Shown piece after piece: positions 24,442 through 43,968 of a stretch of 64,000 nt of DNA. Both the position numbers and the translations under genes were made by a program. Every line of letters begins with the position of its first letter. Positions within the stretch are counted from its first letter, which is position 1. The stretch covers positions 24,231-88,230 of the forward strand of contig DOGZ01000023.1 of assembly GCA_003528115.1 (NCBI GenBank). Reading direction: 5' to 3'. The DNA comes from Candidatus Omnitrophota bacterium (GTDB lineage Bacteria; Omnitrophota; Gorgyraeia; Zapsychrales; Zapsychraceae). A model generated the notes under the pieces. The model was not told the DNA's origin and searched no databases. It saw only the letters and a list, made by a program, of their open reading frames with translations.

Positions 24442-25626
24442 ATGACTGAATTAGACGCCTTATTGGTTCTTAATGCCGTCGCGGGAGTAGGGAACATCCG
24501 CGTAAGAAAATTGGTTGAGCAGTACGGCTCCGCCCATAAACTGTTTTCGCTGGACGAAGCTGAGTTGAGGGAAAATGGCGTCCCTCAGCCCGCCGTTCAG
24601 AATATTTTGAATTTCCCTAGAGACAATTTCCTGAAAAACGAATATAATCTCATCACGCAAAAGAAGGTTAAACTCGTGGACTATCGGGATGAGTCCTATC
24701 CGGTGAATCTTCGCGGTATTCCCGATGCCCCCATCGTTCTTTATGTCCGCGGGAGCATACTTAAGGACAATGAAGCTTCGATCGCTATTGTCGGATCAAG
24801 ACGTTGTTCCCTCTATGGATCATCTGTTTCCGGGCAGTTTGCCGGACGTCTCGCGGAGCTCGGTTTTTGTGTGGTCTCTGGTCTGGCCAGGGGAATCGAT
24901 ACGGCGGCGCATCAAGGGGCGTTGAAGGCCAAGGGGCAAACTCAGGCGGTGATGGGATGCGGTTTGGCGCAGATCTACCCTCCGGAAAACAAGAATTTGT
25001 TTGAAGAAATTTCAGAAAAAGGGGCCGTCATTTCAGAGTTTTCCATGGAGACGCCTCCGGCGCCGTATAACTTTCCTCGACGAAACAGGGTCATTAGCGG
25101 TTTATCCTGGGGGGTGGTGGTCGTGGAAGCGGCGCTTCGAAGCGGGGCGTTAATTACCGCCGATTGCGCTTTGGAACAAGGCCGGGATGTTTTTGCCGTT
25201 CCTGGAAAGGTGGATAATCCGGGGTCCTGGGGCGCGCATAATCTGATCAAACAGGGCGCCAAGTTGGTCAGTTCTGTGGAGGACATTCTGGAAGAACTGG
25301 AACTCCCCTTAACAAGGTTTCTGGAAGAGAGAAAGGCGCGGGCAGGACAGGACATCCCTCAGGACAAGGAGCTTCCTAATCTTATGCCCTCGAACCCTTT
25401 TGTAACTTCTGCCGCTCATGGAAACTGTTTGGAGGCGTTGCCGTCTGAAGGGGAATTAACGGAAGAGGAAAATGCCGTTTATCGTCATTTGAGCGACAGT
25501 CCCGTTCACGTGGATGAGTTGAGTTTACGGTGCGCCCGACCCGCCGCGTTCATAGGTTCTGTTTTGCTTCAATTGGAACTCAAACGGGTAGTCAAGCAAC
25601 TGCCCGGGAAATTGTTTGTAAAATAA
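24442..25626 (+). CDS. dprA: DNA-processing protein A (Smf)
   Basis: 'IVGSRRCSLYGSSVSGQFAGRLAELGFCVVSGLARGIDTAAHQGAL' Rossmann-like DprA core; 394 aa; conserved position upstream of topA. Confidence 0.85.
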   Translation: MTELDALLVLNAVAGVGNIRVRKLVEQYGSAHKLFSLDEAELRENGVPQPAVQNILNFPRDNFLKNEYNLITQKKVKLVDYRDESYPVNLRGIPDAPIVLYVRGSILKDNEASIAIVGSRRCSLYGSSVSGQFAGRLAELGFCVVSGLARGIDTAAHQGALKAKGQTQAVMGCGLAQIYPPENKNLFEEISEKGAVISEFSMETPPAPYNFPRRNRVISGLSWGVVVVEAALRSGALITADCALEQGRDVFAVPGKVDNPGSWGAHNLIKQGAKLVSSVEDILEELELPLTRFLEERKARAGQDIPQDKELPNLMPSNPFVTSAAHGNCLEALPSEGELTEEENAVYRHLSDSPVHVDELSLRCARPAAFIGSVLLQLELKRVVKQLPGKLFVK

Positions 25627-25661
25627 ATTAATAATGATATTTGTTCAGTGAAGGTATCGAT

Positions 25662-27677
25662 ATGACAAAAGCAATCGTTATTGTTGAATCTCCGGCTAAG
25701 GTTAAGACCATTAATAAAATTCTGGGGAAAAATTATAAGGTCGTGTCTTCCATGGGGCATCTGGTTGACCTGCCCAAATCGACGTTAGGCGTTGATATTG
25801 AGAAAAATTTCCAGCCGTCGTTCATTGTTGTCCGCAGCAAGCAAAAAATTCTTACCAATTTAAAGAAAGAAAGCAAAAGCGCCAAGGAAATTTATGTGGC
25901 CACGGATCCTGACCGGGAAGGTGAGGCCATCGGCTGGAATTTAATCAATCATATCGGCGAAGGTAAGAAAGTCTTTCGGGTGACTTTTCAAGAAATCACC
26001 AAAGAAGCCGTGCTCAAGGCCTTTGAGAAGCCCCGGGAGTTTGATATCAAGAAAATCGATGCCCAGGTGGCCAGACGGATTCTTGACCGGATTGTCGGGT
26101 ATAAAATCAGCCCGATCCTTTGGAAAAAGGTCGGTTCCCGTTTGAGTGCCGGGCGTGTCCAGTCCGTGGCCCTGCGCCTCATCGTGGAACGGGAGCGGGA
26201 GATTAAGCGGTTTGTCCCCAAGGAGTATTGGCAGATCCTGGTCGATCTTAAGAAGCCGGACCGTGAGGATATCCTGAGTGCCTCTTTGGAGAAATACGAT
26301 AATGAGAAATTGGAACTGGGATCCAAACAGATCACCGACGCCCTGCTCGAGAAGATGAAAGGGGAGCGTTTCATCGTTTCGGATATCGCCCAGAGAGAAA
26401 TCAAGCGTAAAGCCTCGCCGCCTTTGATTACCAGTACCCTGCAGCAAGAGGCCTTTAACAAATTGAAGTTTAACGCCAACAAAACCATGATGATCGCCCA
26501 GCAGCTTTATGAAGGCATGGAAGTCGGTGACGGGGAATCCGTCGGGCTGATCACGTACATGAGAACAGACTCGGTCAACATCTCGCAAGAGGCGATGGGG
26601 AAAGTGCGGCAATTTATTAAGACCCAGTATGGAGATAACTATTTGCCGGACACCCCGAATGTCTATAAATCCAAGAAGTCAGCCCAGGAGGCCCATGAGG
26701 CTATCCGTCCCTCCGATGTCTTACGCGGACCCGAGACCCTGAAAAAGATCCTGGATGCGGATCAATACAAGCTCTATGAAATCATTTGGAATAGATTTGT
26801 CAGTTCCCAGATGGTGCCGGCCGTGTATCAATCTAAAAAAATAGAAATCACGGCGGGGAAATTTCTTTTCGGGGTCAACGGCTCAACGCTTCTTTTTGAC
26901 GGTTTTCTCACCCTCGAACGTGAGGAGAAAGAAGAGGAAAAGAAACTCGATTTCTCTCATTACCAGAAGGGGGATCATTTGGAGTTAAAGGAGATTAAAC
27001 CCTCCCAGCATTTTACGAAGCCGCCGCCTCGTTTTTCGGACGCGAGTTTGGTCAAGGCCCTGGAAGAAGACGGCATCGGACGTCCCAGCACCTACGCCTC
27101 GATTATTCAAACGCTGGCTTTCCGCAATTATGTGCTCCGTGACCGGGGCTATTTCACGCCGACGGAACTGGGGATAACGATTTGCGATTTGCTGGTGGAA
27201 TATTTTCCCAAAGTTCTCGATGTGGGGTTCACGGCGCGCATGGAAGAGAACCTGGACCTGGTCGAAGAAGGAAAGTTGGAGTACCCCAAACTCCTCCAGG
27301 AGTTTTATCAGCCCTTTAAAGGGGAGTTGGATCACGCGGAGAACACGATTGTCAAGACGCACAACTTTATTGACAAGAAGTGCCCTGAATGCGGACGGCA
27401 GATGGCTGTGAAGTGGGGCCGGCGGGGAAAGTTTTTAAGTTGTTCAGGCTTCCCGCAGTGTAAATTCGCCCAGCCTATTACTTCAGGCATCAAATGCCCT
27501 CAAGAAGGATGCGGCGGGGAATTGGTCAAACGGCAATCCAAAAAAGGCATGCCGTTTTACGGCTGCAGCCATTATCCCAAATGCACGTATGTCAGCTCCA
27601 AGCCGCCGGAAATCGTCGACGAGGCCGGCAGCGGGAGTTCCCAGGGAGAAAAGAAAGACGCGGGCGCTGAGACATGA
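25662..27677 (+). CDS. topA: DNA topoisomerase I with C-terminal zinc ribbons
   Basis: TOPRIM N-terminus 'AIVIVESPAKVKTINKILG'; C-terminal 'CPECG...CSGFPQC', 'CPQEGCGG...CSHYPKC'. Start at MTKAIV. Confidence 0.9.
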   Translation: MTKAIVIVESPAKVKTINKILGKNYKVVSSMGHLVDLPKSTLGVDIEKNFQPSFIVVRSKQKILTNLKKESKSAKEIYVATDPDREGEAIGWNLINHIGEGKKVFRVTFQEITKEAVLKAFEKPREFDIKKIDAQVARRILDRIVGYKISPILWKKVGSRLSAGRVQSVALRLIVEREREIKRFVPKEYWQILVDLKKPDREDILSASLEKYDNEKLELGSKQITDALLEKMKGERFIVSDIAQREIKRKASPPLITSTLQQEAFNKLKFNANKTMMIAQQLYEGMEVGDGESVGLITYMRTDSVNISQEAMGKVRQFIKTQYGDNYLPDTPNVYKSKKSAQEAHEAIRPSDVLRGPETLKKILDADQYKLYEIIWNRFVSSQMVPAVYQSKKIEITAGKFLFGVNGSTLLFDGFLTLEREEKEEEKKLDFSHYQKGDHLELKEIKPSQHFTKPPPRFSDASLVKALEEDGIGRPSTYASIIQTLAFRNYVLRDRGYFTPTELGITICDLLVEYFPKVLDVGFTARMEENLDLVEEGKLEYPKLLQEFYQPFKGELDHAENTIVKTHNFIDKKCPECGRQMAVKWGRRGKFLSCSGFPQCKFAQPITSGIKCPQEGCGGELVKRQSKKGMPFYGCSHYPKCTYVSSKPPEIVDEAGSGSSQGEKKDAGAET

Positions 27678-28534
27678 ATCGGTATATTGAGAAATTTGTC
27701 AACTATTTGGATGTGGAGAGAAATTATTCCAGACACACCATTCTCAATTACAGTCTTGATTTGGAAGATTTCTTTAAGTTTCTCGATAAGGTCGCCCTGG
27801 AGAAGTGTGATTATTTGTTCCTGAGAAAGTATCTTGCCTATTTGAGAGAGAAGCAGCATCGACCTAGATCGCTTGCCCGAAAACTTTCTTCCTTAAGAAG
27901 TTTTTTCAGGTTTCTTCTCCGGGAAGGACTTCTGAAGAATAATCCCGCTTTATTGATGATGTCGCCGAAACTGGATAAGACATTGCCGAAATTCTTAACG
28001 GAAGAAGAAATGGCGCGATTTATTGAGTCCGCTTCCGACGGAAAGCCGCTGAGCCGCAGGGACAGGGCCATGATGGAAACCCTGTACAGCACCGGGATCA
28101 GGGTGAGTGAACTGGTTGGGATGAATGTCCATGATGTGGATTTCATTGGGAATACGGTGAAGGTATTCGGCAAAGGGAAAAAGGAACGGATTGTTCCTAT
28201 CGGCGATAAAGCCTTGGGGGCGATGAGAGATTATTTGCAGGACCGCCTCCATCAGCCGGGCGCCCTGTTTCTCGACAAGAAAGGAAATCGTTTATCCGAT
28301 AGAGGCGTTCGGAGGATTCTCCAGAAATATATCCACGCGGGCAGTCTTCAAACCCATGTCTCACCGCATGTGTTCCGTCATTCCTTCGCGACGCATCTGC
28401 TCAACCGGGGGGCCGACCTGCGGTGTGTTCAGGAATTGCTGGGTCACGCTAATCTTTCAACGACGCAAATATATACTCATGTCACGACCGACCGGCTGAA
28501 AAAAGTATATGACCAGGCCCATCCCAGGGCGTAA
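27674..28534 (+). CDS. xerC: Tyrosine recombinase XerC/XerD
   Basis: C-terminal 'HVFRHSFATHLLNRGADLRCVQELLGHANLSTTQIYTHV' catalytic motif with Tyr; 286 aa. Confidence 0.8.
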   Translation: MNRYIEKFVNYLDVERNYSRHTILNYSLDLEDFFKFLDKVALEKCDYLFLRKYLAYLREKQHRPRSLARKLSSLRSFFRFLLREGLLKNNPALLMMSPKLDKTLPKFLTEEEMARFIESASDGKPLSRRDRAMMETLYSTGIRVSELVGMNVHDVDFIGNTVKVFGKGKKERIVPIGDKALGAMRDYLQDRLHQPGALFLDKKGNRLSDRGVRRILQKYIHAGSLQTHVSPHVFRHSFATHLLNRGADLRCVQELLGHANLSTTQIYTHVTTDRLKKVYDQAHPRA

Positions 28535-28566
28535 TGCTGCCTATCATCAAGGGTTGAACAAATCGT

Positions 28567-29829
28567 ATGCGGTTCATTTTTGACATCATTTTTGTGGTCT
28601 ATGCCTTAGTGTATTTTCCTTATGTGATGCTTCAGAGGAAATGGCATAAGGATTTTCCCCAGCGTCTCGGCTGCTGGCCCGCGGCCTTGAGGAGCGCGTT
28701 TAAACAGAAAGACAATATCTGGGTCCACGCGGTCAGTGTCGGCGAGGTCGAGGCGTCTTTACCTTTGATTAAAAGGATTAAGGAATCCTTCCCGGCGTAC
28801 GGAATGATTTGCTCCACCGTGACACCAACAGGCTATCGTCTCGCCAGGGAGAGATTGCAAGATCAGGGACTTGTTATTTATGCCCCGCTGGATTTTAGCT
28901 GGATGACGCGCAAACTCGTCCATCTCATCCGGCCTAAAATGTACGTTGTGGTGGAAACAGAAATTTGGCCGAATATGTTCTTGGCGCTCCAAAGCCGGGG
29001 CGTGCCGATCGTCCTGGTGAACGGCCGTATTTCGGACAAGGCCTTCAGAAACTATCAAAAGATTTCTTTTCTCCTGAGAAGGATCCTGCGTGGTGTGAGC
29101 CATTTTTGCATGCAATCTTCCCTCGATGCGCGGCGGATCCTAACGCTCGGTGCCCCGCAAGAAAGGGTCAGCGTCGTGGGCCATTTGAAGTTTGATAACC
29201 TGCCGCCGCCTGCCGCGGATTTACCCAAAATAAATTTTGGAAAAGACGACAGGCTTCTCATCGCCGGCAGCACGCATCCGGGAGAGGAGGAAATCCTTCT
29301 TAAAATTTATAAAAAGCTGGTTGCCGAGTTCAAAACGATACGATTAGTCCTCGCCCCCCGCCATGTGGAGCGGACGCAGGATGTTGTCAGGCTGGTGGAA
29401 GACCTGGGATTTAAGGCGGTTAAGTTTTCGCGTGCCGCCGATGTCCGATTGACGGCCGATTCCGTCGTTGTTGTCGACACCATAGGACAGTTGCGGACTT
29501 TGTACAATTGGGCGGAGGTTGTTTTTGTGGGAAAATCGCTCACCGTCCCCGGCGGACAGAACATCATCGAACCGGCCTTTTACGGCAAGCCGGTTTTTGT
29601 CGGACCCCACACGCGGAATTTTCGTGACGTGGTGGCGTTGTTTTTACAAGAACAGGCGCTTGTTCAAGTCCGGGATGCCGATGAATTATTCTTTGCTTTA
29701 AAGGAATTTCTTCGGGATCCGAACCCGAGGACACAAATGGGGCTTCGGGCGCAAGCCGTCGTTCAAAAATATCAGGGTGCGACCGCCCGCACGATTAAAA
29801 TCCTTTCAACCTTTCTTGGCCGGGAATAA
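28567..29829 (+). CDS. waaA: 3-deoxy-D-manno-octulosonic acid (Kdo) transferase
   Basis: N-terminal TM anchor plus 'WVHAVSVGEVEASLPLIKRIK' GT30 signature; 420 aa. Confidence 0.85.
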   Translation: MRFIFDIIFVVYALVYFPYVMLQRKWHKDFPQRLGCWPAALRSAFKQKDNIWVHAVSVGEVEASLPLIKRIKESFPAYGMICSTVTPTGYRLARERLQDQGLVIYAPLDFSWMTRKLVHLIRPKMYVVVETEIWPNMFLALQSRGVPIVLVNGRISDKAFRNYQKISFLLRRILRGVSHFCMQSSLDARRILTLGAPQERVSVVGHLKFDNLPPPAADLPKINFGKDDRLLIAGSTHPGEEEILLKIYKKLVAEFKTIRLVLAPRHVERTQDVVRLVEDLGFKAVKFSRAADVRLTADSVVVVDTIGQLRTLYNWAEVVFVGKSLTVPGGQNIIEPAFYGKPVFVGPHTRNFRDVVALFLQEQALVQVRDADELFFALKEFLRDPNPRTQMGLRAQAVVQKYQGATARTIKILSTFLGRE

Positions 29830-29839
29830 GAGGAAGAAC

Positions 29840-30928
29840 ATGAGCGTGAGGCATTTCCTGTATTTGGTGGCGACGGATCAGAAAAAGGGATGGGGAATTC
29901 AGGTCTTGAAATCCGTCTTAGGCCTGTTGTCCTGCCTTTATGGTTTCGTGGTTCTGATCATTGGGTGGGCTTACCGCGGGGGCTTGTTTAGAACCATCCG
30001 TCTGGCCAGACCAGTTGTGAGTGTCGGCAACATGACTTTGGGAGGCGTGGGCAAAACGCCCCTTGTGGAATTGATCGCCGCGGCCTTAAAAGAGAAGAAC
30101 ATCAAACCGGTTGTTCTCATCCGCGGGTATATGAGTCCAATATGTTCGCGGAAGTCAGGAGTTGGGCGCAGGTCCTTAAGCGATGAAGCCCGGATGCTGG
30201 TCGCTTCTTTGGGGGATGTGCCGGTCTTGGTCGGGGCGGACAGAGTGAAGAATGCCGTCAATTTTTTGAAAGGGCACACCGCGGATATTTTCTTGTTGGA
30301 TGACGGGTTTCAGCACCGGCGGATTTTCAGGCAGTTGGATATTGTGGCGATTGACGCGACCGATCCTTGGGGGAACGGATGTTTGATCCCTCGTGGTATT
30401 TTGAGAGAACCTTTCAGGGCCTTGCGCCGGGCGCACATGGTGGTGTTAACCAAGACGGACTTAGGCGGGTCCAACGTCCCTCAGATCAAGGCGCGGTTAC
30501 AAACGTTAGGCCTCACCCTCCCGGTCATCGAGACCATTCATCAGCCCTGCGCCCTTGTGGATGTGCGTTTGAAGACAACGACGTCGATGTCTTTCCTTAA
30601 AGGAAAAACAATTTGTTCTTTTTGCAGTATTGGACATCCCAAGACGTTTGAAATGACGCTGGTGAATTTGGGGGCGCAGTTAGCAAAAAGTTTTTCTTTT
30701 ATTGACCATCATGTGTATGAAGAAGACGATATCGCGCGGATCGCCCGGTATTGTCAGGCCGACGGGATCGATACGGTGGTGACCACACAGAAAGACGCGG
30801 TCAAACTGGAACAGTGGTTACGGTTCTTCCCGGCGTCTTTTAAAGTTTTATCCTTGCAGATCAAGATATCGATTGTCAAAGGGAAGGAAGAATTCTTTGA
30901 AAGAATTGATCATCTACTACAGCGCTAG
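29840..30928 (+). CDS. lpxK: Tetraacyldisaccharide 4'-kinase
   Basis: 'VSVGNMTLGGVGKTPLVELIA' P-loop. Start moved to the ATG at 29840; the ORF track's 29777 start overlaps waaA. Confidence 0.85.
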   Translation: MSVRHFLYLVATDQKKGWGIQVLKSVLGLLSCLYGFVVLIIGWAYRGGLFRTIRLARPVVSVGNMTLGGVGKTPLVELIAAALKEKNIKPVVLIRGYMSPICSRKSGVGRRSLSDEARMLVASLGDVPVLVGADRVKNAVNFLKGHTADIFLLDDGFQHRRIFRQLDIVAIDATDPWGNGCLIPRGILREPFRALRRAHMVVLTKTDLGGSNVPQIKARLQTLGLTLPVIETIHQPCALVDVRLKTTTSMSFLKGKTICSFCSIGHPKTFEMTLVNLGAQLAKSFSFIDHHVYEEDDIARIARYCQADGIDTVVTTQKDAVKLEQWLRFFPASFKVLSLQIKISIVKGKEEFFERIDHLLQR

Positions 30929-32861
30929 ACTTTTTGGTCTGGTCATCCAATCCTTGCCGTTGCCCGTGGCCCTCTGGACGGGAAAGTTTCTCGGCATGAT
31001 GGTCTATTACGTCGACGCGCGGCATAAGGCCTTGGCCTATGCCAATCTGAAAATGGCCTTTAGCCGTTTAAGGTCATCGGATGAGTTAAAGCGAATCACC
31101 AAGATTCTGTTTCAGAATTATGGACGGAATTTGATTGAATTGTTCCGCATGCCGCTGCTGACTCCGTCTAAGTTCGCGGAATTGGTCAAGATTGAAGGAA
31201 AGGAAAACATCTCTGAGGCGTTGAAGCAAGGCAAGGGACTGATTTTGATTGCCATGCATTTTGGAAGCTGGGAGATGGCCAGCGTTTCGTGCGGTTTACT
31301 GGATCATCCGTACAAGGTCATTGTCAAACCGCAAGTGAAATATTCTAAACTCGATGAGCTGCTCAATTCTTACCGGGCCTGCGGGGGGTCGGTCATTCTT
31401 TCCAAAGGATTGGGGACGCGGGACTTTGTGAAAAGTTTAAAGAACAATGAAGTCATCGGCATGGTGGTGGATCAAGGGGGCAAGGATGGTGTCCTGGTGC
31501 CGTTTTTCAGCCGGCAGGCATCGATGTCCTCAGGGGCCATCCGTATGGGATTGAAGTGGGGCGTGCCGTTATGCTTCTCTATTATTATCCGGGAAAACGG
31601 CGCGCACCACCGGATGATCATTAATAAACCTCTTGAGCTGGAAAATACCGGAGACATGGAAAAAGATGTTGTGACGAACTTAACAAAGATCGCCGGGATC
31701 ATGGAACGGTATATCACCGAGTATCCGTCGGAATACATGTGGTTCTATAAAATCTGGAAGTATTCGAAAGAGGCGCATATCACCCTTCTCAGTGACGGAA
31801 AGACTGGTCATCTGCGGCAATCCGAGACGGTGGCGCGGATGATGCAGAAGGCTTTGGCGGAAAGAAGGATCGCCTCAACGGTTCAAACCGTTCAGGTGAA
31901 TTTCAAGAATAAGTTTGCCGCGAGAATTTTTTCTCTCATGAGTCTTCTTTCGCGTCCTTTCTTGCATCAGGGCCGGCTGCAATGTCTGAAATGGTTTCTG
32001 ACCGAGAAGTCTTTAAAAGATGTCATGGCCGCGAAGGCGGATTTTATTGTCTCCTGCGGCTCCTCCATCGCCGGGGTGAATCATCTTTTGTCTCAGGATC
32101 ATAATGCCAAAAGCCTGGTGGTCCTTAAGCCGGGTCTCTTGGGATATGACCGGTTTGATTTGGTCCTATTGCCCCAGCATGATGTCTCGCGTCAAGACAG
32201 GAGCAGGAAACGCGTCGCTGTCACGGTCGCGGCGCCGAATTTGGTTAATGAAGAGTATCTGAAAGAACAATCCGTTTTGCTTTTGAACCGGTTTTCGCAT
32301 CTGAAGAGCCATACAAGAATGAAGATAGGCCTTTTTATCGGCGGCAATTCGAAAAACGTTTATTTGAGCGAGCCTCAGATAAGGGTATTGATTCACCAGA
32401 TCAAGCAGATCGCTCAAGAAATGAACGCGGATATCCTGGTGACGACGTCCCGCAGGACCCCGGGGCATCTTGAGCAACTGCTTCACGCGGAATTGAAGAA
32501 ATTTCCCCGATGTCCTTTGCTGATATTGGCTAACAAGGATAATATCCCGGAGGCTGTCGGCGGGATTCTGGGGTTGTCGGATATCGTCGTGGTGTCGGGG
32601 GACAGCATCTCCATGATCTCTGAGGCCGCGGCTTCAGGGAAAGACACCATTGTTTTTTCTCCGGAAAGCCGCGGAGGTTTCTGGAAAGGGACGGACAAGC
32701 ATAAAGTGTTTATTGAAAAACTTTATACCCAGGGATTTATTTTATCCGCCGAGGCGGGAAGTGTCGCGCAAACCATCAATGACGTTTTCAAGAACAAGAT
32801 CCATACAAAGAAAATCGAAGACCAGCAGATTATTCTCAACGCGGTGCGGGAAGCTATTTAA
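30873..32861 (+). CDS. Two-domain protein: N-terminal LpxL/HtrB-family lipid A late acyltransferase fused to a C-terminal ELM1/COG3660-like GT-B-fold domain
   Basis: The N-half has 'LIAMHFGSWEMA' (HX4E/D acyltransferase motif) and a LABLAT-like layout. The C-half has 'ILVTTSRRTP' and 'VVVSGDSISMISEAAASGKDTIVF', resembling the Mito_fiss_Elm1/COG3660 family. Assignment from memory. Confidence 0.55.
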   Translation: MSKGRKNSLKELIIYYSARLFGLVIQSLPLPVALWTGKFLGMMVYYVDARHKALAYANLKMAFSRLRSSDELKRITKILFQNYGRNLIELFRMPLLTPSKFAELVKIEGKENISEALKQGKGLILIAMHFGSWEMASVSCGLLDHPYKVIVKPQVKYSKLDELLNSYRACGGSVILSKGLGTRDFVKSLKNNEVIGMVVDQGGKDGVLVPFFSRQASMSSGAIRMGLKWGVPLCFSIIIRENGAHHRMIINKPLELENTGDMEKDVVTNLTKIAGIMERYITEYPSEYMWFYKIWKYSKEAHITLLSDGKTGHLRQSETVARMMQKALAERRIASTVQTVQVNFKNKFAARIFSLMSLLSRPFLHQGRLQCLKWFLTEKSLKDVMAAKADFIVSCGSSIAGVNHLLSQDHNAKSLVVLKPGLLGYDRFDLVLLPQHDVSRQDRSRKRVAVTVAAPNLVNEEYLKEQSVLLLNRFSHLKSHTRMKIGLFIGGNSKNVYLSEPQIRVLIHQIKQIAQEMNADILVTTSRRTPGHLEQLLHAELKKFPRCPLLILANKDNIPEAVGGILGLSDIVVVSGDSISMISEAAASGKDTIVFSPESRGGFWKGTDKHKVFIEKLYTQGFILSAEAGSVAQTINDVFKNKIHTKKIEDQQIILNAVREAI

Positions 32862-32999
32862 CTCTTTAGCAGGCGCTTGGAAAGAGCGGCAACGCCAGGG
32901 AATCAATTCTTGCCCGCGGGCAAGAATTCAGACAGCCGCCGGCTGGCAACGCGGCATGAACCTGACTGGAATAAAATTTCTTAAAGCGGAAGCGTTTCT

Positions 33000-35099
33000 A
33001 TGAAAATATTACAAATACTTCCTGAATTGAACGTCGGAGGCGTGGAGACCGGGACTCTGGATTTCGCCAAGTATCTGGTCGCCCATGGGCATCAGTCTTT
33101 GGTTGTCTCTCACGGGGGCAAGTTAGTGGCCGAACTCGAGAGGGCGGGAAGCCGGCATTATGTTTTGCCGGTCCACCAAAAATCATTTTTATCCATAGTG
33201 AAGCAGATTAAACCTCTTCGAAAAATCATTCTGGAGGAAAAGGTCGATATCGTTCACGCCCGTTCCCGCGTCCCGGCCTGGATCGCTTACTTTGCCTGCC
33301 GCAAGACAGACGCCTCTTTTATCACGACCTGTCATGGTTATTATAAAAATTATTTATTCAGTCAGGTGATGGGTTGGGCCAAGTTGGTCATTGCCCCGAG
33401 CAAGGTGATCGCGCGTCACATGATGGATGATTTTCATGTCTTCCCGGAGCAAATCCGGTGCATTCCCAGGAGCGTCGATTGGGAGAAATTTTCCATTCCC
33501 AGGACGCCGAAGACGGGAGGCGAGCCGCGCATCATAACGATCGTTGGACGCGTAACGCCTCTGAAAGGCCATGTCTATTTTATCAAGGCCATGGCCAAAG
33601 TGATTCGGTCCATGCCTCATATTAAGGTGTGGATTGTCGGCGATGCCCCGGCCAAGAAGGAATTTTATAAACGGGAAGTTGAGGTGTTGATTCGCCGTCT
33701 GGGGATACAAGACTATGTGGAGTTCTTAGGTAACCGTCAGGATATTCCTCAGCTTTTGTCCAAGACCGATGTGTTGGTGTTATCGACGATCACGCAGGAA
33801 GCCTTTGGCCGCGTGATTTTGGAGGCCCAGGCCGCGGGGGTCCCGGTTGTGGCCACCAAGGTCGGCGGCGTGGTGGATATTATTGATGAAGGCAAGACAG
33901 GGCTTCTGGTCCAGCCCAAAGACACCGAGGCCATGGCCGGGGAAGTGATGCGGCTGCTCAAAGATCCATTATTGGTTCAACAGATCACCGCGCAGGCGCA
34001 GAAGAAACTTAAAGAAGAATTTACGATTGACAAAATGGCCTCCCGGACCCTCGAGGCGTATCAGGAACTTGCCACGGTGAAGAATATCTTCGTTATCAAA
34101 TTAAGCGCCCTGGGGGATGTAATTCTCATTACAGCCTCGCTAAAGGCGTTACGGCACCAATTCCCCAAGGCCAGGATCTATTGTCTAGTGGGAAAGGATG
34201 TCGTGAAGATCCTGCAGAGCTGCCCGTATCTGGACGGTCTCATCGTTTACGATCAGAAGGATAAAGGATGGTGGGACATATTTAAGTTTTCTTCCAAGGT
34301 GCGGGCGTATAAGTTTGATCAAGTGATCGATTTTCAAAACAGCCGTCGCAGCCATGTGTTAGCATTTTTGAGTTTTGCCAGAGACACGTATGGGTTTCAT
34401 AATGGGAAATGGAGTTTCTTGCTGACACGGCCTGTTTCCGGTTACCGGAATGATATCCCTCCGGTGGAGCACCAGTTCCAGATTCTGGAGAAATTGGGGA
34501 TTTCTTATAAGACCGCTCATCCATTCCTTGAGCTTTGGCCGTCGGAAAAAGACCGTCAATATGCTCAAAAATTACTGGACGCCGAGTGGCTGGGAAACAG
34601 CAAGAACATGGTGGGCATCAATATCGCCGCTTCAGCCAAATGGCAAACCAAGAATTGGCCTGTGGAACACGTCGCGAAATTGTGTGATCTTCTTTCGAGC
34701 AAGAACATCCGGGTCGTGTTAACGGGCATGGCGAAAGATAAAATCCTGGTGAAAAAGGTTTTATCCCTGACCCATGCCAAGCCGGCGGATCTGACCGGCA
34801 AGACGGATATTTTACAGCTCGCGGCGCTGATCAAAAAATGTAAAGTTTTTGTCACGCCGGATTCGGCACCGCTTCATGTGGCCGCGGCCATGAAAGTCCC
34901 TTGTATCGCTTTCTTTGGGCCGACGGATTCAAAACGCCACATCCCCCCGGCCAAGAAAATGATTGTTTTCGAGAAGAAACCCGCCTGTGCCCCTTGTTAC
35001 AGTTCGCGATGCAAGATAGGAACGCATGCCTGTCTGCAGGACATCACGCCGGAAGAAGTCGCTGAGGCCATTGAGACACTGATCGGAGAACATCCTTGA
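33000..35099 (+). CDS. Fusion of a GT4 glycosyltransferase (N-terminal) and a GT9 heptosyltransferase-family domain (C-terminal)
   Basis: GT4-like N-terminus 'KILQILPELNVGGVETGTLDFAKYL...EAFGRVILEAQAAGVPVVATKVGG'. C-half 'IFVIKLSALGDVILITASLKALRHQFPKARI' and 'DSAPLHVAAAM' are GT9 hallmarks. 699 aa. Confidence 0.7.
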   Translation: MKILQILPELNVGGVETGTLDFAKYLVAHGHQSLVVSHGGKLVAELERAGSRHYVLPVHQKSFLSIVKQIKPLRKIILEEKVDIVHARSRVPAWIAYFACRKTDASFITTCHGYYKNYLFSQVMGWAKLVIAPSKVIARHMMDDFHVFPEQIRCIPRSVDWEKFSIPRTPKTGGEPRIITIVGRVTPLKGHVYFIKAMAKVIRSMPHIKVWIVGDAPAKKEFYKREVEVLIRRLGIQDYVEFLGNRQDIPQLLSKTDVLVLSTITQEAFGRVILEAQAAGVPVVATKVGGVVDIIDEGKTGLLVQPKDTEAMAGEVMRLLKDPLLVQQITAQAQKKLKEEFTIDKMASRTLEAYQELATVKNIFVIKLSALGDVILITASLKALRHQFPKARIYCLVGKDVVKILQSCPYLDGLIVYDQKDKGWWDIFKFSSKVRAYKFDQVIDFQNSRRSHVLAFLSFARDTYGFHNGKWSFLLTRPVSGYRNDIPPVEHQFQILEKLGISYKTAHPFLELWPSEKDRQYAQKLLDAEWLGNSKNMVGINIAASAKWQTKNWPVEHVAKLCDLLSSKNIRVVLTGMAKDKILVKKVLSLTHAKPADLTGKTDILQLAALIKKCKVFVTPDSAPLHVAAAMKVPCIAFFGPTDSKRHIPPAKKMIVFEKKPACAPCYSSRCKIGTHACLQDITPEEVAEAIETLIGEHP

Positions 35100-36202
35100 A
35101 CATCCTTTTTCTAACAACGCATCTGAATACCGGCGGCATAACAACCTATCTTCTGACGTTGACGAAGGGATTGGTGCGCCGCGGATGTTCTGTGCACGTG
35201 GCCTCATGCGGCGGAAATAGGGAAGAGGCATTCATTGCAAGCGGGGTAAGACTTCTCAACATCAACATCCGCACCAAGTCGGAACTCTCCCCGCGACTAT
35301 ATCTGGCCCTGCCTCATCTCAGGCGCTACGTCAAGGAACACAATATCGAAATCATTCACGCCCATACGCGGATCACGCAGGTGATGGGGCGATTGTTAAA
35401 GACTCTGACGCGCAGGCCGTATGTGTCCACGTGTCATGGGTATTTTAAACCGCGCTTTTCCCGCAGGATTTTTCCGTGTTGGGGAGACGCGGTGATCGCG
35501 ATCAGTCAGGCTGTTTGTGATCATCTTAAAAAGGACTTTGGCGTCAAGAAGGAGAAGACGGCCTTGATCCCGAGCGGTTTGGACTTAGAGGCGTTTCCCC
35601 TCATTGATGAGGAAAAAAGGAAGAGGAACCGTCGGCGTTTGGGGTTAAGCGATGAACCCCTCATCGGCATCGTCGCGCGGCTGTCGGATGTCAAGGGACA
35701 GGATATTTTGATTAAGGCGATGAAAAAAGTCATCGAAAGAATCCCGCGGGCCAGGCTTTTGATCGCGGGGGAAGGAAAGTGGGAATCCTCCTTGAAAGAC
35801 CTCGCGCGCAGTTTAGGGTTAACAGACCATGTCCTATTTTACGCCGGCGTAAACGAGACTGTCGACAGCTTATCGATGTTGGATGTCTTTGCCATGCCGT
35901 CGCGTTCCGAAGGGCTGGGTCTGTCGGTGATGGAGGCCCAGGCCTGCGGCCTGCCGGTGGCGGCTTCGCGCGTCGGCGGGATTCCGAGTCTCATTGAAGA
36001 CGGCCAAACCGGTTTTCTAGTGGAACCTGAAAATCCGGATGCCCTTGCCGGGGCTTTAGTGAAAATTCTCGAGAATCCGGGTCTGGCCAAGCGCGTGGGA
36101 TCGGCGGCCAGAAAGTTTATTGAAGAAAATTGTTCGTCGGATAAGATGGTGGATAAGACGTTAGCCTTGTACAAAGGCGTTATAGACAAGAGACATGAAT
36201 AA
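35096..36202 (+). CDS. Glycosyltransferase family 4
   Basis: 'ILFLTTHLNTGGITTYLLTL' and 'SEGLGLSVMEAQACGLPVAASRVGGIPSLIEDGQTGFLV' (E-x7-E region). Confidence 0.75.
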   Translation: MNILFLTTHLNTGGITTYLLTLTKGLVRRGCSVHVASCGGNREEAFIASGVRLLNINIRTKSELSPRLYLALPHLRRYVKEHNIEIIHAHTRITQVMGRLLKTLTRRPYVSTCHGYFKPRFSRRIFPCWGDAVIAISQAVCDHLKKDFGVKKEKTALIPSGLDLEAFPLIDEEKRKRNRRRLGLSDEPLIGIVARLSDVKGQDILIKAMKKVIERIPRARLLIAGEGKWESSLKDLARSLGLTDHVLFYAGVNETVDSLSMLDVFAMPSRSEGLGLSVMEAQACGLPVAASRVGGIPSLIEDGQTGFLVEPENPDALAGALVKILENPGLAKRVGSAARKFIEENCSSDKMVDKTLALYKGVIDKRHE

Positions 36203-37208
36203 TATCCTGGTGGTCAATGTCAATTGGCTGGGCGATGTGATCTTTTCCTCCCCGGTTTTTAGAGCTCTGAAAGAGGCCTATCCCCAGGCGAGGATCATCT
36301 GCCTGGCGGTACCCCGGGTCAAGGAGATCCTTGAGAGTATTCCATTTATCGATGAGATTATTATCTATGATGAGAAAGGCAAACACGCCTCGCTCACGGC
36401 CAAGCTGGGGTTGATTTATTCCTTGAGGAAAAAAAAATTTGATATTGCCTTTTTATTGCATCGTTCCCTGACACGGGCATTGTTTGTTTTCCTGGCGGGG
36501 ATCCCTCGGCGGGTGGGTTACGATACCAAAGGCCGGGGCTTTTTTTTGACGCACAAGGTTAAGCCGCTGGCGGGAGAGGCGCACCGCTCCGATCATTACC
36601 TCCATGTGATCGAGTCTTACGGCATTTCCGTCCGCGACCGTCGGACACAATTAAACGTGACCTCCCAGTCCAAGGAGGAGGTCTCGGGGATGCTGACTGC
36701 CGAGAATGTCCGGCCCGAAGATGAAATAGTTGTCATTAACCCCGGCGGGAATTGGGATCTGAAACGCTGGCCCGTTGAAAACTTCGCGAAACTGGTGGAT
36801 CATTTGATGAATGAGGGGCGTTGGAAAGTTGTGATCGCCGGAGCGCCTCAAGATGTCCCTCTGTTTGAGACCATCATCTCCCATAGCAAAGACAAACCCA
36901 TCAACCTGACGGGAAAGACGACCCTCAAGCAACTCATGGCCCTCATGCAGCGGGCCAGACTGGTGATCTCAGCCGATTCCGGGCCGTTGCATCTGGCCAG
37001 CAGTGTCGGTACGGACGTGATCGGCATCTTCGGCCCCACGCGTCCGGAAATCACCGGCCCCCGCGGATCGGGCCGCGGCGCGATCCTCCAGCATGACGTC
37101 GGCTGCAACCGCAAGGCGTGTTACCATTTAAAATGTCCGGATAATATCTGTATGAAATCCATCAGTGTGGAAGATGTGCTTACCAAGTTCAATAAGATCA
37201 TAGAATAA
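36195..37208 (+). CDS. GT9 heptosyltransferase-family glycosyltransferase (WaaF/WaaC-like)
   Basis: 'ILVVNVNWLGDVIFSSPVFRALKEAYPQARI' and 'DSGPLHLASSVGTDVIGIFGPT' signatures. Confidence 0.75.
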   Translation: MNNILVVNVNWLGDVIFSSPVFRALKEAYPQARIICLAVPRVKEILESIPFIDEIIIYDEKGKHASLTAKLGLIYSLRKKKFDIAFLLHRSLTRALFVFLAGIPRRVGYDTKGRGFFLTHKVKPLAGEAHRSDHYLHVIESYGISVRDRRTQLNVTSQSKEEVSGMLTAENVRPEDEIVVINPGGNWDLKRWPVENFAKLVDHLMNEGRWKVVIAGAPQDVPLFETIISHSKDKPINLTGKTTLKQLMALMQRARLVISADSGPLHLASSVGTDVIGIFGPTRPEITGPRGSGRGAILQHDVGCNRKACYHLKCPDNICMKSISVEDVLTKFNKIIE

Positions 37209-37456
37209 CCCCTTTCACTTCCTCAGCAAAGGCCGGTAAATATTCCATTGACGATACCGTTTTACAAATGCGGCATATGACCCGGTCTCTCAGTCTAGAG
37301 AATTTTGTTTACAATGAGGACGATTGCAAGGCGATGACCGTGCTTTTGGATTGTCTGCGGCCGCAGGCGGATGCTTATTTTCTATTGACAAATGGAGACG
37401 CTGTGGTAAGTTGTGTATGTAAATAAAGTGTACTAAAGTTATTTCAAAGATAACCT

Positions 37457-38257
37457 ATGCTACAATATAATACATCAAAAACTTTTGGGCCCATTGAGAC
37501 CAATATCATCGCTCGTTTAACATACGAGAAAAAGTTGATCGTCACCATAGAGGATCTCGATCAACTATTTAAACTTGGTCCAGAGGACAGAAAGCAGATT
37601 GTTTTCAGGCTCAAAAGGAAAAAAATACTAAACCCTATAAAGCGCGGCGTCTATGCCTTTTCCCCGCTTGAAGCCGGCCCGGAAGGGACAGGGATTGATG
37701 AACTGCTTATTCCTCCGCTTTTTTTCCCTAAAAAAAATTATTATGTCGGTTATTCAACTATGTTTAATTACTACGGTTTTTCAGAGCAACTTTTTCAGAC
37801 TGTATATGTTCTTAATACGACCTTACGTATGGAAAGAATAATTTGCGGCATTTCCTATAAGTTCATAAGAATTCCGGAAAGCCGCATCTATGGGCAGGAA
37901 ATTATTAAAGTGAAAAATACGGATGTCCTCGTTAGTTCTAAAGAGAGGACGCTCATTGATCTTCTCTATTTTAACAAGCCGGTTGGCGGCATTAATAGTG
38001 CCGCCCGGATTTTCAAACAAGTTGTTGAAGAAAAAAAATGTGATATCAGGAAGCTTGTTCAAGACGCCGCGCGCTTTTCGAATATCACGACTAGAAAACG
38101 CATCGGTTTGATTCTTGATGATTTAGGCGTCGCCGATACCGCTCTTAGGCCGCTTATCAAAAGTGTAGCGAAAACCGCGCTGAGTTCGTTTAGCGGATCG
38201 CGTAAAGGAACACTCAATAAAAAATGGAGAGTCCTTGTCAATGATTCACAAAGATAA
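37457..38257 (+). CDS. abiEi: AbiEi-family antitoxin / transcriptional regulator (type IV TA, abortive infection)
   Basis: N-terminal wHTH followed by 'IKRGVYAF' (the conserved R-G-x-Y) and a C-terminal 'YYVGYSTMFNYYGFSEQ' region. AT-rich (visibly lower GC than neighbours). Overlaps the downstream toxin gene by 23 nt. Confidence 0.65.
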   Translation: MLQYNTSKTFGPIETNIIARLTYEKKLIVTIEDLDQLFKLGPEDRKQIVFRLKRKKILNPIKRGVYAFSPLEAGPEGTGIDELLIPPLFFPKKNYYVGYSTMFNYYGFSEQLFQTVYVLNTTLRMERIICGISYKFIRIPESRIYGQEIIKVKNTDVLVSSKERTLIDLLYFNKPVGGINSAARIFKQVVEEKKCDIRKLVQDAARFSNITTRKRIGLILDDLGVADTALRPLIKSVAKTALSSFSGSRKGTLNKKWRVLVNDSQR

Positions 38258-39119
38258 AGAGGAATTTATAAAAATTCTTGAGAGAGCATCCAGGAAAAAG
38301 GAATTCTTATTGCCTCAATTGGAGAAAGATTATTACTTAACATTGATTCTCTCCCGGGTCCATGAGCTTTCAGAAGACCTCATTTTTAAAGGGGGGACAT
38401 GCCTGAATAAAATTTATTACGCGTATTATCGTTTGAGCGAAGATCTTGATTTTAGTATAAAGCTCCCGCAGTACGAAGCGACGCGCGGCGAAAGACGCAA
38501 GTGTATCCAGCCGGTGAAGGATAATATAAAGAAATTTGTGGAGCCATTCGATATCAGGATTGATGATTCGGGCAATCCCGGGCGTAATGAATCCAAGCAG
38601 TATGTATATTATTTCGTTTATCAATCAGCTCTGCGCCAGGTCGAAGCAAAAATTAAATTTGAAATCAGCCTCAGGTATAATCCGATTCACGCGACAGAGA
38701 AGCGTCCAGTCCAGCATCATTTTTTGCATCCTTTTACCGGAGAGCCGTTATTTGATGGAGGCAAGGTTAATTGTTTATCCTTAAAAGAGATTGTGAGTGA
38801 AAAGCTCCGGGCCGCGGCTTTAAGGGAGACAATCGCGCCGCGCGATTTTTATGATCTTGATTTTATTTTGCGTAGTAAATTCAATCTTGCGGATCAGGAG
38901 GTTATCGATCTTTTTAAGAAAAAGATTGAGGAAGATGGCGGAGATCCGGAATTAGCAAAGTATCGCGCCAATCTCGGGCGGTCCAATGATGAAATTAAGG
39001 ATATGCGTTCACGGATTGAAAATGAATTATTTGACGCATTAACACCGGGTGAACGTGAGCATTTTGATCTCGACCAAGCGTTGGTGAGAATCAATGAGGC
39101 TTTAAAAGGGCTAAAGTAA
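38235..39119 (+). CDS. abiEii: AbiEii/AbiGii-family nucleotidyltransferase toxin (DUF1814)
   Basis: 'FKGGTCLNKIYYAYYRLSEDLDFS' matches the KGGTAL...RFSEDIDF core of AbiEii nucleotidyltransferases. 294 aa. Confidence 0.7.
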   Translation: MSMIHKDKEEFIKILERASRKKEFLLPQLEKDYYLTLILSRVHELSEDLIFKGGTCLNKIYYAYYRLSEDLDFSIKLPQYEATRGERRKCIQPVKDNIKKFVEPFDIRIDDSGNPGRNESKQYVYYFVYQSALRQVEAKIKFEISLRYNPIHATEKRPVQHHFLHPFTGEPLFDGGKVNCLSLKEIVSEKLRAAALRETIAPRDFYDLDFILRSKFNLADQEVIDLFKKKIEEDGGDPELAKYRANLGRSNDEIKDMRSRIENELFDALTPGEREHFDLDQALVRINEALKGLK

Positions 39120-39207
39120 TGACGCCGGTGGGTCGTGCGGATGAGAAATCTGATTTTGAGAGGGTTTTAGAAAGGTTTAATCAGATATTCGCGGACAAGA
39201 AATTTAA

Positions 39208-39453
39208 TTCAAACGCCCGCCGGACACTTTGAAAGGTTCGGAAAAGAGTTCGGATAAGATTTTTGCGGTAAGCAGGAAGAACGGTAGCATTAGCGCAACA
39301 CAGTTAGCGCGGATTTTAGGTGTTTCTCCAAGGGCGATAAAAAAACAGATCGCCAATTTGAGATCTTTTGGAGTTTTAAAGCACGTTGGCGGTCGTAAGA
39401 TGGGGCAATGGGAAATCATCGATAAAAATAACCTTTCCGTTCCTGGACCATAA
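39208..39453 (+). pseudogene. C-terminal wHTH fragment of a COG2865-type (AlbA_2-HATPase_c_4-wHTH) putative regulator; truncated remnant
   Basis: 'ATQLARILGVSPRAIKKQIANLRSFGVLKHVGGRKMGQWEII' matches the C-terminal wHTH of COG2865 proteins. The reading frame opens only 7 codons upstream, after a stop. Confidence 0.5.
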
Positions 39454-39736
39454 AAGTCTTGACGATATTGTTTCCGACGCGACCGACCTCACCGCCGCCG
39501 CGATCGACGCCTGCCGCGATGTCGGGAAGGGGAAGGTCAAGTGATCGCCTTGTTGAGAGGTCTATAAAAAGGATTAGTTCAAATGAACGGTCAATGGATG
39601 GGGCAATACACCGAAGGGCGAATGCGCGAATGCGGGACACAATACTTATTTCGGAAATCAACGTGCCAGGTACTTTCGCAGGGGACAGGTTGAAGGTTGA
39701 CCGAGTAGGCTCCCTTCGGCAGGAAAATCGAAGAAT

Positions 39737-39940
39737 ATGTTCAAAGAATCCGAAACAATCGAGTTCAAGAAATCCACCGCCCAGGTTAAGGCGGGGGTCC
39801 TTTCACCTGTGGCCATGCTCAACAAACATGGCCGGGGAGAGGAAATCAATCCGGGAGATTTCTTTATCGGCCATAAGAAGTCGATGAAATTGGATAGTTT
39901 CAAATATGCACGTAACGCCATCAGACAAATCACGCATTAA
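39737..39940 (+). pseudogene. N-terminal fragment of an AlbA_2 (Schlafen-like, COG2865) domain gene; disrupted after about 30 codons
   Basis: 'ESETIEFKKS' is the classic AlbA_2 N-terminal motif. The sequence diverges soon after and stops at 67 aa, overlapping the next heptosyltransferase start. Confidence 0.45.
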
Positions 39941-40937
39941 AAAAATACTCGTCATCTCATTGTCGAACATCGGGGATGTGATTTTGACGTTTCCGGTTAT
40001 TGACATCTTAAAGACCGAGCTGCCTGCCGCCGCGTTGTCCCTGGTGATTGGGCCCAAGGCCCAGTCGCTGTTTAACGGCAATCCGTATCTGGATAAGGTT
40101 TATATTTATCATAAGAAACAATCTCCATTAGACATTTTGCCATGGATTTGGAAGTTACGAAAACAACGGTTTGATTTGGTTGTAGACCTGCGCAATACGG
40201 CCATCCCTTTGATGATCGCCCCCCAATTCAGGACTCCGTTATGGACGGCAAAGTCAGAAACGCTGCATATGAAGGAAAAGCATCTCAAAAGGCTGGGAAC
40301 GGTTTTTCCCAATACGTCGAGACTGGATCGATCGTATGCCTTGTTTATCCCTCCCATCGAGGTGCAATATGTCCGACGATTGATTGGTGATGAAATGGGG
40401 CATGACCAGAAATATGTTGTGGTGGCGCCGGGGGCGGCCGATCGGGCCAAGAGATGGATCGAAGAGGGGTTTGCCGAGGTCTGTGATCAGTTGGTCGGAT
40501 CGGAACATTTGAAGGTCGTGTTTGTGGGAGACGAGCAGGACCAAAAAGTCGCGGCAAGGATCGCCGAGAAAATGAGCGAGCCCTCGGTTAATTTATGCGG
40601 CCGGGTGAGCCTTATCCAGTTGGCCGAGGTGTTGAAACATTGTCATTTGGCGATCGGTAATGACAGCGCGCCGATGCATCTGGCCAGTTATCTGGATCGT
40701 CCTGTCCTGACGATTTTTGGCCCAACGGATCCGCGGAAATACGGCCCGTGGAGTACAAAGGCCGCCTTTATTCAGGGCCGGGCGGATTGCCGGGCCTGCC
40801 GGGATCCGGATCATATCAAAGATCATGATTGTATTCGCTCGGTGACTGGCTCCGATGTCCTCAAGGCCATCAAGTTCACTCCGGATGGTGTTGAATTTGT
40901 TAGTGGTATTCGAAAGAGCAATGAAGAAGAATTTTAA
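39906..40937 (+). CDS. GT9 heptosyltransferase-family glycosyltransferase
   Basis: 'ILVISLSNIGDVILTFPVIDILKTELPAAAL' and 'DSAPMHLASYLDRPVLTIFGPTD' signatures. Confidence 0.75.
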   Translation: MHVTPSDKSRIKKILVISLSNIGDVILTFPVIDILKTELPAAALSLVIGPKAQSLFNGNPYLDKVYIYHKKQSPLDILPWIWKLRKQRFDLVVDLRNTAIPLMIAPQFRTPLWTAKSETLHMKEKHLKRLGTVFPNTSRLDRSYALFIPPIEVQYVRRLIGDEMGHDQKYVVVAPGAADRAKRWIEEGFAEVCDQLVGSEHLKVVFVGDEQDQKVAARIAEKMSEPSVNLCGRVSLIQLAEVLKHCHLAIGNDSAPMHLASYLDRPVLTIFGPTDPRKYGPWSTKAAFIQGRADCRACRDPDHIKDHDCIRSVTGSDVLKAIKFTPDGVEFVSGIRKSNEEEF

Positions 40938-41985: not shown

Positions 41986-42185
41986 AATCGGGCGCTTTTG
42001 TCAGGCCATTTTGCCATTCCTTCGATAATTATAAGGATTTTTTCGTTTGGCGATCTGCCTTGCCACAACATCCGGCGATCGCTCTAGGTGCGTACACCGT
42101 ACGTCTCGCGGAGTTTATCCCGGGACTCCCCGGGTTGCTGCGCGCGCCTCATCTAAACGGGAAAATCCTGTAAGGGATAAATGAG

Positions 42186-43217: not shown

Positions 43218-43957
43218 AGGTCATTGGTGTGATTCCGGCGCGATGGGGTTCAACCCGCTTTGAAGGCAAGGTGCTTGCCAAGATTTCAGGTAAACCCATG
43301 ATCCAGCATGTCTGGGAGCGCGCCGGCCAAAGCCGTCGGCTGGATGAACTGATCATTGCCTGCGACGATAAGAGGGTCTTGGAAGCAGCCCAACAATTTG
43401 GGGCCACGGCTGTTTTGACATCCCCGGATCATCCGTCAGGTTCTGACAGGATTGCCGAGGCGGTGGCGCAGAGGGATGTCGATATCGTGATTAATATCCA
43501 GGGAGATGAACCCCTGATTCAATCGTCGGTCATTGATGACTTGGCCCGGGCGTTGCTGGAGGATCCGTCTTGTGTGATGGCCACGGCGATTAAGGTGCTT
43601 GATAAGAAAGAAGAATTGTTGAGCCCCAACGTGGTCAAGGTGGTGGTGGATAAAGACAATAATGCCTTGTATTTCTCGAGGTCTGTGATCCCGTATAACC
43701 GCGATGATCAAACCATAACGTATTATAAGCATCTGGGGATTTACGCGTATCGCAAAGATTTTCTTTTTACCTTCAAGGAGCTGCCGAAGTCTCTTCTTGA
43801 AAAGGCCGAGAAACTGGAACAGCTCAGGGTCCTGGAATCCGGTTTTAAGATCAAAACCGTTGTGACGGATATTGAGACCGTCGGGGTCGATACGCCGGAG
43901 GATTTGGCGTGTGTGGAGTGGTTATTGAAGGATAGAGAACAAAAGTTAAAAGAATAG
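43214..43957 (+). CDS. kdsB: 3-deoxy-manno-octulosonate cytidylyltransferase (CMP-Kdo synthetase)
   Basis: 'VIGVIPARWGSTRFEGKVLAKISGKPMIQHV' signature. Confidence 0.85.
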   Translation: MKVIGVIPARWGSTRFEGKVLAKISGKPMIQHVWERAGQSRRLDELIIACDDKRVLEAAQQFGATAVLTSPDHPSGSDRIAEAVAQRDVDIVINIQGDEPLIQSSVIDDLARALLEDPSCVMATAIKVLDKKEELLSPNVVKVVVDKDNNALYFSRSVIPYNRDDQTITYYKHLGIYAYRKDFLFTFKELPKSLLEKAEKLEQLRVLESGFKIKTVVTDIETVGVDTPEDLACVEWLLKDREQKLKE

Positions 43958-43968
43958 GACTTTGAATC

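Follow-up and report, generated by a model that had tools for sequence, protein, structure and literature searches.

We analysed a 64,000-nucleotide stretch of the Candidatus Omnitrophota bacterium assembly GCA_003528115.1 (contig DOGZ01000023.1, positions 24,231 to 88,230 of the forward strand; the window, in which all positions below are counted), where one gene joins a late acyltransferase of lipid A to a second domain belonging to the ELM1 family. The gene lies on the plus strand in a lipopolysaccharide (LPS) operon, in the order given by an initial annotation made from the sequence: waaA, coding for the transferase of 3-deoxy-D-manno-oct-2-ulosonic acid (Kdo) of glycosyltransferase family 30 (GT30; 28567..29829, +), is followed by lpxK for tetraacyldisaccharide 4′-kinase (29777..30928, +) and then by the fused gene, whose first 32-56 nt, depending on the start chosen, lie within the 3′ end of lpxK. 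Both halves of the fusion are expected to accept Kdo2-lipid IVA, the product of WaaA.

A fused gene in the lipid A operon

The open reading frame (ORF; 30873..32861, +) comprises 662 codons with zero internal stops, and is open from a TTG codon at 30873. A second TTG at 30897 is the likelier start, being preceded by the purine run GGAAGGAAG and agreeing with the deposited protein of 654 aa from Omnitrophica WOR_2 bacterium GWA2_45_18, which is 100% identical to the fusion; the gene, which we call lpxL::kdoT-like, would accordingly span 30897..32861 (+). Two Pfam domains were found on the ORF and no others: PF03279 (Lip_A_acyltrans) at residues 12-296 (152.1 bits, E 2.5e-44, gathering cut-off 22.3), and PF06258 (Mito_fiss_Elm1) at residues 312-630 (151.5 bits, E 3.7e-44, gathering cut-off 27). 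Both lie far above their cut-offs, in agreement with the initial description of a single 662-aa ORF combining a lipid A acyltransferase with a second domain. The N-terminal LpxL/LpxM-family late acyltransferase domain thus corresponds to 30906..31760 (+), and the C-terminal ELM1/GtrOC1/KdoT-family domain, which was modelled as ORF residues 300-662, to 31770..32858 (+).

The fusion is genuine, and is intact in nearly all Omnitrophota loci examined. A species-level scan with one genome per GTDB species yielded 193 loci, and our counts cover the best 80, all of them from Omnitrophota, some in the form of metagenome-assembled genomes (MAGs) that are labelled Planctomycetales in the European Nucleotide Archive. 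The lpxL and ELM1 halves share one stop-free frame in 76 of the 77 Omnitrophota loci holding both, the sole exception (L033) having a late TAG at residue 614 on an N-containing contig. The possibility of a frameshift, or of two ordinary genes separated by a stop, was raised by three loci which looked unfused, and was rejected: in two of them (L006 and L052) the stops precede the start codon, and the TAG in L033 is outside the inter-domain region. Furthermore, of the homologues in the database, the best 120 (54-66% identity, 620-672 aa) contain both Pfam domains without exception, and every named one among them is from Omnitrophota; the same is true of all named fused proteins, the most divergent included, and most metagenomic matches carry no taxon. 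Both halves and the junction between them (…YMWFYKIWKYS…SDGKTGHLRQS…) are kept in the homologue alignment, with no low-complexity linker. The full-length AlphaFold2 model (predicted local distance difference test, pLDDT, 88.5; predicted template modelling score, pTM, 0.84; pLDDT of about 89-95 at the junction) suggests a fixed two-domain architecture.

The order common to the species-level loci is dprA-topA-xerC-waaA-lpxK-[lpxL::elm1]-[GT4::GT9]-GT4-GT9-GT9-GT9-pfkB-kdsB. This arrangement, found at 24442-43957 in the window, is nearly unchanged in about 80 species-level Omnitrophota genomes (L001-L080) with protein identity falling to 31-40%, an unusually rigid synteny that joins DNA-processing genes to the LPS operon.

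The N-terminal half has A. baumannii LpxM (5KN7) as its closest solved relative (E 2.6e-11), and the HX4E acyltransferase catalytic motif, HFGSWE at 31257..31274 (+), aligns with HFGTWE of that structure and is invariant in the homologue alignments. None of the NCBIfam equivalog cut-offs for LpxL, LpxM or LpxP was reached, the best score being 148.6 bits for NF006270 against a cut-off of 248.

The C-terminal domain and its resemblance to KdoT

When searched in isolation, the C-terminal domain matches PF06258 with 153.7 bits, and this is its sole Pfam match even at E≤10, with no match to MurG/GT28, GT9, GT30 (Glycos_transf_N) or LpxB (PF02684) at that threshold; the placement with LpxB or MurG, which the initial annotation had named as grounds for refutation, therefore did not materialize. 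The AlphaFold2 model of the domain (pLDDT 90.5, pTM 0.84) consists of two Rossmann-like halves, i.e. a GT-B fold, and together with the Pfam match it bears out the proposed assignment to ELM1/COG3660. Foldseek returned generic GT-B matches at 10-13% identity, and a profile of 20 C-terminal domains found nothing at E≤10 among sequences of solved structures in PDB. We also aligned the domain by hhalign with WaaA, GT9 and GT4 from the same cluster and with LpxB, MurG and WecB, using LpxK as a negative control. The probabilities were near noise (WaaA 1.8%, LpxB 0.2%, MurG 0.2%), the best being 27% for GT9 in the C-terminal half only, as compared to 5% for the LpxK control, so that no nearest glycosyltransferase family can be named by sequence.

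The two motifs on which the initial annotation relied are indeed present, TTSRRTP at residues 524-530 (32442..32462, +) and SGDSISMISEA at residues 575-585 (32595..32627, +), and according to the alignments they make up the signature for nucleotide binding in the C-terminal Rossmann half. The latter forms the nucleotide-binding helix motif, with family-invariant S, M and E, and aligns with ‘aDSGPLHiA’ of GT9 and ‘TDSGGIQEEA’ of WecB. An older annotation of COG3660 would make the domain a modifier of nucleotide sugars, of the uridine diphosphate N-acetylglucosamine 2-epimerase or NeuC type, which feeds the neighbouring glycosyltransferases. Its likeness to the 2-epimerase is, however, limited to the fold: Epimerase_2 (PF02350) gives no match at E≤10, the hhalign probability for WecB is 1.4%, and a serine occupies the position of His213 in the GHRRE motif of WecB, which we take to be the essential catalytic histidine of that enzyme. 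As the characterised member of the family is a bona fide transferase when purified and assayed in vitro (PMC12856342), an epimerase role appears very improbable.

That member comes from A. baumannii, where GtrOC1 was classed as Mito_fiss_Elm1 and predicted by Kenyon and colleagues to be a glycosyltransferase linking inner and outer core. Deletion of the ELM1-like A1S_2903 (GtrOC1) leaves Kdo2-lipid A, the gene being needed for extension beyond it, and KdoIII and N-acetylglucosaminuronic acid (GlcNAcA) are added by 2903 in concert with LpsB, an enzyme of GT4 (VanOtterloo et al., mBio 2024, PMC10936431). Purified A1S_2903, renamed KdoT, is a CMP-Kdo:Kdo2-lipid IVA KdoIII transferase (CMP, cytidine monophosphate), which adds KdoIII to Kdo2-lipid IVA or Kdo2-lipid A, prefers the tetra-acylated acceptor over the hexa-acylated one, and leaves lipid IVA unmodified if Kdo is absent; the next residue, GlcNAcA, is attached by LpsB, which has been renamed GnaT (VanOtterloo, Voss and Trent, JBC December 2025, PMC12856342). 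Rickettsia and other Acinetobacter species have homologues that complement a kdoT mutant, the SRRT motif of KdoT is invariant with its second arginine, R180, being required, and the modelled active site is lined by D8, H13, H109 and D110 (PMC12856342). The initial proposal that the fused domain acts on Kdo or lipid A is thus supported by analogy with KdoT, while its description of such a role as currently uncharacterised is out of date, since a Kdo-lipid A role for the family has been published (PMC10936431, PMC12856342).

The local sequences of KdoT and GnaT were decoded from published mutagenesis primers, and for KdoT the comparison covers three short motifs. In the β1-α1 loop, KdoT MHIVYVSDGKAGHRSQ corresponds to HITLLSDGKTGHLRQ in the window, where SDGKTGH (31791..31811, +) is the counterpart of S7-D8-G-K-A-G-H13, with its D, G and H and the Q that follows being family-invariant. 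Next, VIPEHD corresponds to LLPQHD, of which PQHD (32172..32183, +) matches P-E-H109-D110 and contains a family-invariant His-Asp pair. Finally, ILTTSRRTP corresponds to ILVTTSRRTP, so that the TTSRRTP singled out by the initial annotation coincides with the SRRT donor-positioning motif (ILTTSR179R180TP) that was functionally tested in the KdoT paper (PMC12856342). The probed residues (SDGKxGH, P-x-HD, ILxTTSRRTP) are therefore common to KdoT and the window domain, including the critical second arginine, with ORF R528 as the counterpart of R180. They are exactly the residues that are invariant across 118 family representatives of all architectures, in which we find (in domain numbering) D9, G13, H14, Q17, G97, H137, D138, G191, G192, S227, R228, R229, T230, S279, M282 and E285. 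As a separate observation, His13 was described as not conserved outside Acinetobacter (PMC12856342), whereas the equivalent of its window counterpart, ORF His313 (31809-31811), is invariant in 118/118 Omnitrophota-type representatives, including standalone, LpxK-fused and GT9-fused forms.

These residues also bear on the question of whether the domain is catalytic. Plant ELM1 is a recruitment factor for a dynamin-related protein, and an assistive role for 2903 was raised as possible in the 2024 paper (PMC10936431), so the domain could be imagined as a non-catalytic adaptor or scaffold which recruits or organises LPS enzymes. Yet the full nucleotide-binding constellation and the polar residues of its N-terminal half are invariant in all architectures, and purified KdoT is catalytically active alone (PMC12856342), leaving little to recommend a scaffold, which we regard as highly unlikely.

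Other architectures of the family and the surrounding genes

Searching 1.84 billion cluster representatives (clusters at 50% identity) with a profile recovered 3687 family members at E≤1e-3. Among the best 150 of these 3687, 113 are LpxL fusions (87 full-length and 26 N-truncated) and about 20, with lengths of 348-370 aa, seem to be true standalone proteins. Other N-terminal partners occur in a few members, namely LpxK::ELM1 (P0155, P0203 and the partial P0170) and GT9::ELM1 (P0253). Two standalone ELM1-family paralogues are found in the Omnitrophota MAG GCA_030698625.1 away from the LPS locus (L085, 8001-9074; L083, 8001-9110); one overlaps an MsbA-like exporter gene at its 3′ end, including the stop codon, within a Wzm/Wzt/Wzy_C/GT2 polysaccharide cluster, and the other lies amid radical-SAM genes and genes of unknown function.

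The LpxK::ELM1 fusions suggested that the domain could be a non-orthologous replacement of LpxB, the lipid A disaccharide synthase, which makes the substrate of LpxK and is likewise a GT-B protein of similar size. This candidate was rejected, as a canonical lpxB is present in the window (3716-4861, −; PF02684, 339.6 bits), which excludes a replacement; in addition, the domain carries no LpxB signal, and KdoT is inactive on lipid IVA without Kdo. We consider it the least plausible of all explanations. lpxB is adjoined by a gene for a Gfo/Idh/MocA oxidoreductase (4878-5831, −), which could presumably be GnnA-like and would then imply a 2,3-diamino-2,3-dideoxyglucose (GlcN3N) lipid A backbone, and an MsbA-like ABC exporter gene (6012-7805) is divergent from lpxB.

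Directly downstream of the fused gene is a second fusion, GT4::GT9 (33000..35099, +; 699 aa), whose two halves are in one frame in 70/70 Omnitrophota loci extending downstream. It always directly follows the ELM1/KdoT-like domain, whatever the fusion partner of that domain, and is found after LpxK::ELM1 (L081) and after GT9::ELM1 (L082). Compared with the window, the GT4 half has an identity of 59% in L081 and of 47% in L082, with lower values for the ELM1 domain (35% and 32%). The GT4 half in the window contains EAFGRVILEA, comparable to ETFGRTALEA in GnaT, the underlying EX7E pattern being generic to GT4. By analogy with GnaT, the GT4 half is a candidate for the next-step enzyme.

The core-oligosaccharide operon continues on the plus strand with a GT4 gene (35096-36202), a GT9 heptosyltransferase-II-like gene (36195-37208), two further GT9 genes (39906-41985), a PfkB sugar kinase gene (42186-43217), and kdsB, kdsA, kdsD and kdsC (43214-46276), which cover the whole pathway of CMP-Kdo supply within this supercluster. 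An AbiEi antitoxin/AbiEii toxin pair (37457-39119, +) is inserted in the gap 37209-39905, between two GT9 genes of the operon. Since these two genes abut or overlap in other Omnitrophota loci, the insert, of about 2.7 kb, is probably strain-specific. Farther downstream, a 290-aa ORF (46249-47121, +) with matches to LptC (PF06835) and LptA/LptD_N (PF03968) appears to be an LptC::LptA fusion, located just upstream of lptB (47096-47824, +).

Several other features of the window may be mentioned. The trigger factor encoded at 47971-48891 is 306 aa long and has matches to Trigger_N and Trigger_C, with no match to the peptidyl-prolyl isomerase (PPIase, FKBP) domain, and may be naturally PPIase-less. 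Three ORFs have no significant Pfam match: 42-3131 (1029 aa), the overlapping 3115-3684 (189 aa), and 52561-53331 (256 aa).

A proposed bifunctional enzyme and its relation to known systems

The explanation that we favour, with a probability of roughly 70%, is that the fused gene codes for a bifunctional enzyme of LPS assembly, combining an LpxL-type acyltransferase with a KdoT-type glycosyltransferase. As LpxL and KdoT both use Kdo2-lipid IVA, the product of WaaA, the joining of the two domains can be rationalised. The protein would be anchored at the inner membrane, facing the cytoplasm, where its N-terminal half, with the intact HX4E motif, would add a secondary acyl chain from acyl-acyl carrier protein to the Kdo2-lipid IVA made by the upstream WaaA. 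The C-terminal half, judging from its homology to KdoT, would take the same Kdo-bearing precursor of lipid A and add a further sugar to the Kdo region, our best guess being an extra Kdo from CMP-Kdo, with the donor positioned by the SRRT arginines. The GT4 domain of the GT4::GT9 protein might then add the following residue, mirroring the order of KdoT and GnaT, after which GT9 heptosyltransferases would continue the core. The linker-free fusion would tie acylation and glycosylation at a fixed 1:1 stoichiometry to one membrane site. Our data establish the domain identities, the conserved motifs, the fold, the synteny and the fusion as such. Transfer from CMP-Kdo to Kdo2-lipid IVA has been demonstrated for the homologue KdoT and would apply to the fusion by analogy; likewise, we infer the donor and acceptor of the fused protein, the order of its two reactions, and any channelling between them.

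The main live rival is a version of the same fused enzyme in which the ELM1 domain is a paralogue of KdoT with a different donor or acceptor, transferring a non-Kdo sugar (hexose, hexuronic acid or heptose) or acting elsewhere on the inner core. It stays in consideration since outer-core and O-antigen-like clusters contain paralogues of PF06258: several occur per genome in Acinetobacter outer-core loci, and standalone paralogues are also present in Omnitrophota polysaccharide clusters, as described above. The size and diversity of the family, with its 3687 clusters, also speak for it, as does the fact that identity with KdoT was assessed at three short motifs only. On the other hand, the match to those motifs is close and extends to the histidine reported as not conserved outside Acinetobacter, the LpxL partner shares the preferred acceptor of KdoT, the genes for the CMP-Kdo pathway lie in the same cluster, and the domain is followed by GT4 just as KdoT is functionally followed by GnaT. 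On balance, we view a different donor or acceptor as unlikely, and prefer a KdoT-type activity.

A bolder version, which we put forward tentatively and regard as possible, is that the fused protein is one true two-active-site machine that both acylates and glycosylates a single Kdo2-lipid IVA molecule, or else that it employs a non-Kdo donor and creates a new inner-core linkage. If two active sites do cooperate in this way, the succession of ELM1 and GT4 would represent an ancient conserved two-step inner-core module not confined to Proteobacteria, and the fusion would overcome the problem of coupling in vivo (in the absence of downstream flux KdoT is inactive), which is still unexplained in A. 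baumannii.

The novelty lies in the fusion and in its conservation throughout the phylum, along with the two rarer alternative fusions, the enzyme functions themselves being already known; neither fused KdoT/ELM1 forms nor Omnitrophota were found to be mentioned in the KdoT paper or in the other literature searched. KdoT overturned the view of WaaA as the sole enzyme adding inner-core Kdo, and reports of it are so far limited to Acinetobacter and Rickettsia. In Omnitrophota, a whole candidate phylum of the Planctomycetes-Verrucomicrobia-Chlamydiae (PVC) group outside Proteobacteria, its enzyme family is an integral part of the core lipid A operon, and the locus supports the generality of a split Kdo pathway. 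The “Rosetta stone” fusions with LpxL, LpxK and GT9 provide an independent link between the ELM1 family and Kdo-lipid A. The fusion also offers a compact ready-made construct for studying the coupling between late acylation and KdoIII addition, and our assignment would correct the database names “mitochondrial fission ELM1 family protein” or “lauroyltransferase” given alone.

Comparison with known systems shows the N-terminal half to be similar to LpxL/LpxM (PF03279; 5KN7) in matching the domain over its full length, in the HX4E motif and the hydrophobic N-terminus, and in its place after waaA and lpxK, while the fusion differs from them in bearing an extra 360-aa C-terminal glycosyltransferase domain and in scoring below every NCBIfam equivalog cut-off. 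The C-terminal domain is distinct from WaaA (KdtA, GT30), as it belongs to a separate family and a genuine waaA lies two genes upstream; moreover, enzymes of the KdoT type do not start the addition of Kdo to lipid IVA. Plant ELM1, the namesake of PF06258, is in the same Pfam family, but is described as an adaptor recruiting DRP3A to mitochondria, with no described glycosyltransferase role, in contrast to the bacterial domain, which keeps enzyme-like invariant residues and sits in an LPS operon. KdoT is the closest counterpart, sharing with the window domain the Pfam family, the GT-B fold, the probed motifs and the lipid A/Kdo pathway, in which KdoT is followed by a GT4 enzyme and the window domain by a candidate one. 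KdoT, however, is a standalone protein ending in ‘RVATYLLAKN’ (as read from the primers), with active-site positions about 28-49 residues earlier than in the window domain, and kdoT opens the outer-core locus, separate from lpxL and gnaT. The window domain, from a different phylum and with its activity predicted from sequence, is about 360 aa long with insertions, forms the C-terminus of an LpxL-type acyltransferase, and adjoins its putative GT4 partner.

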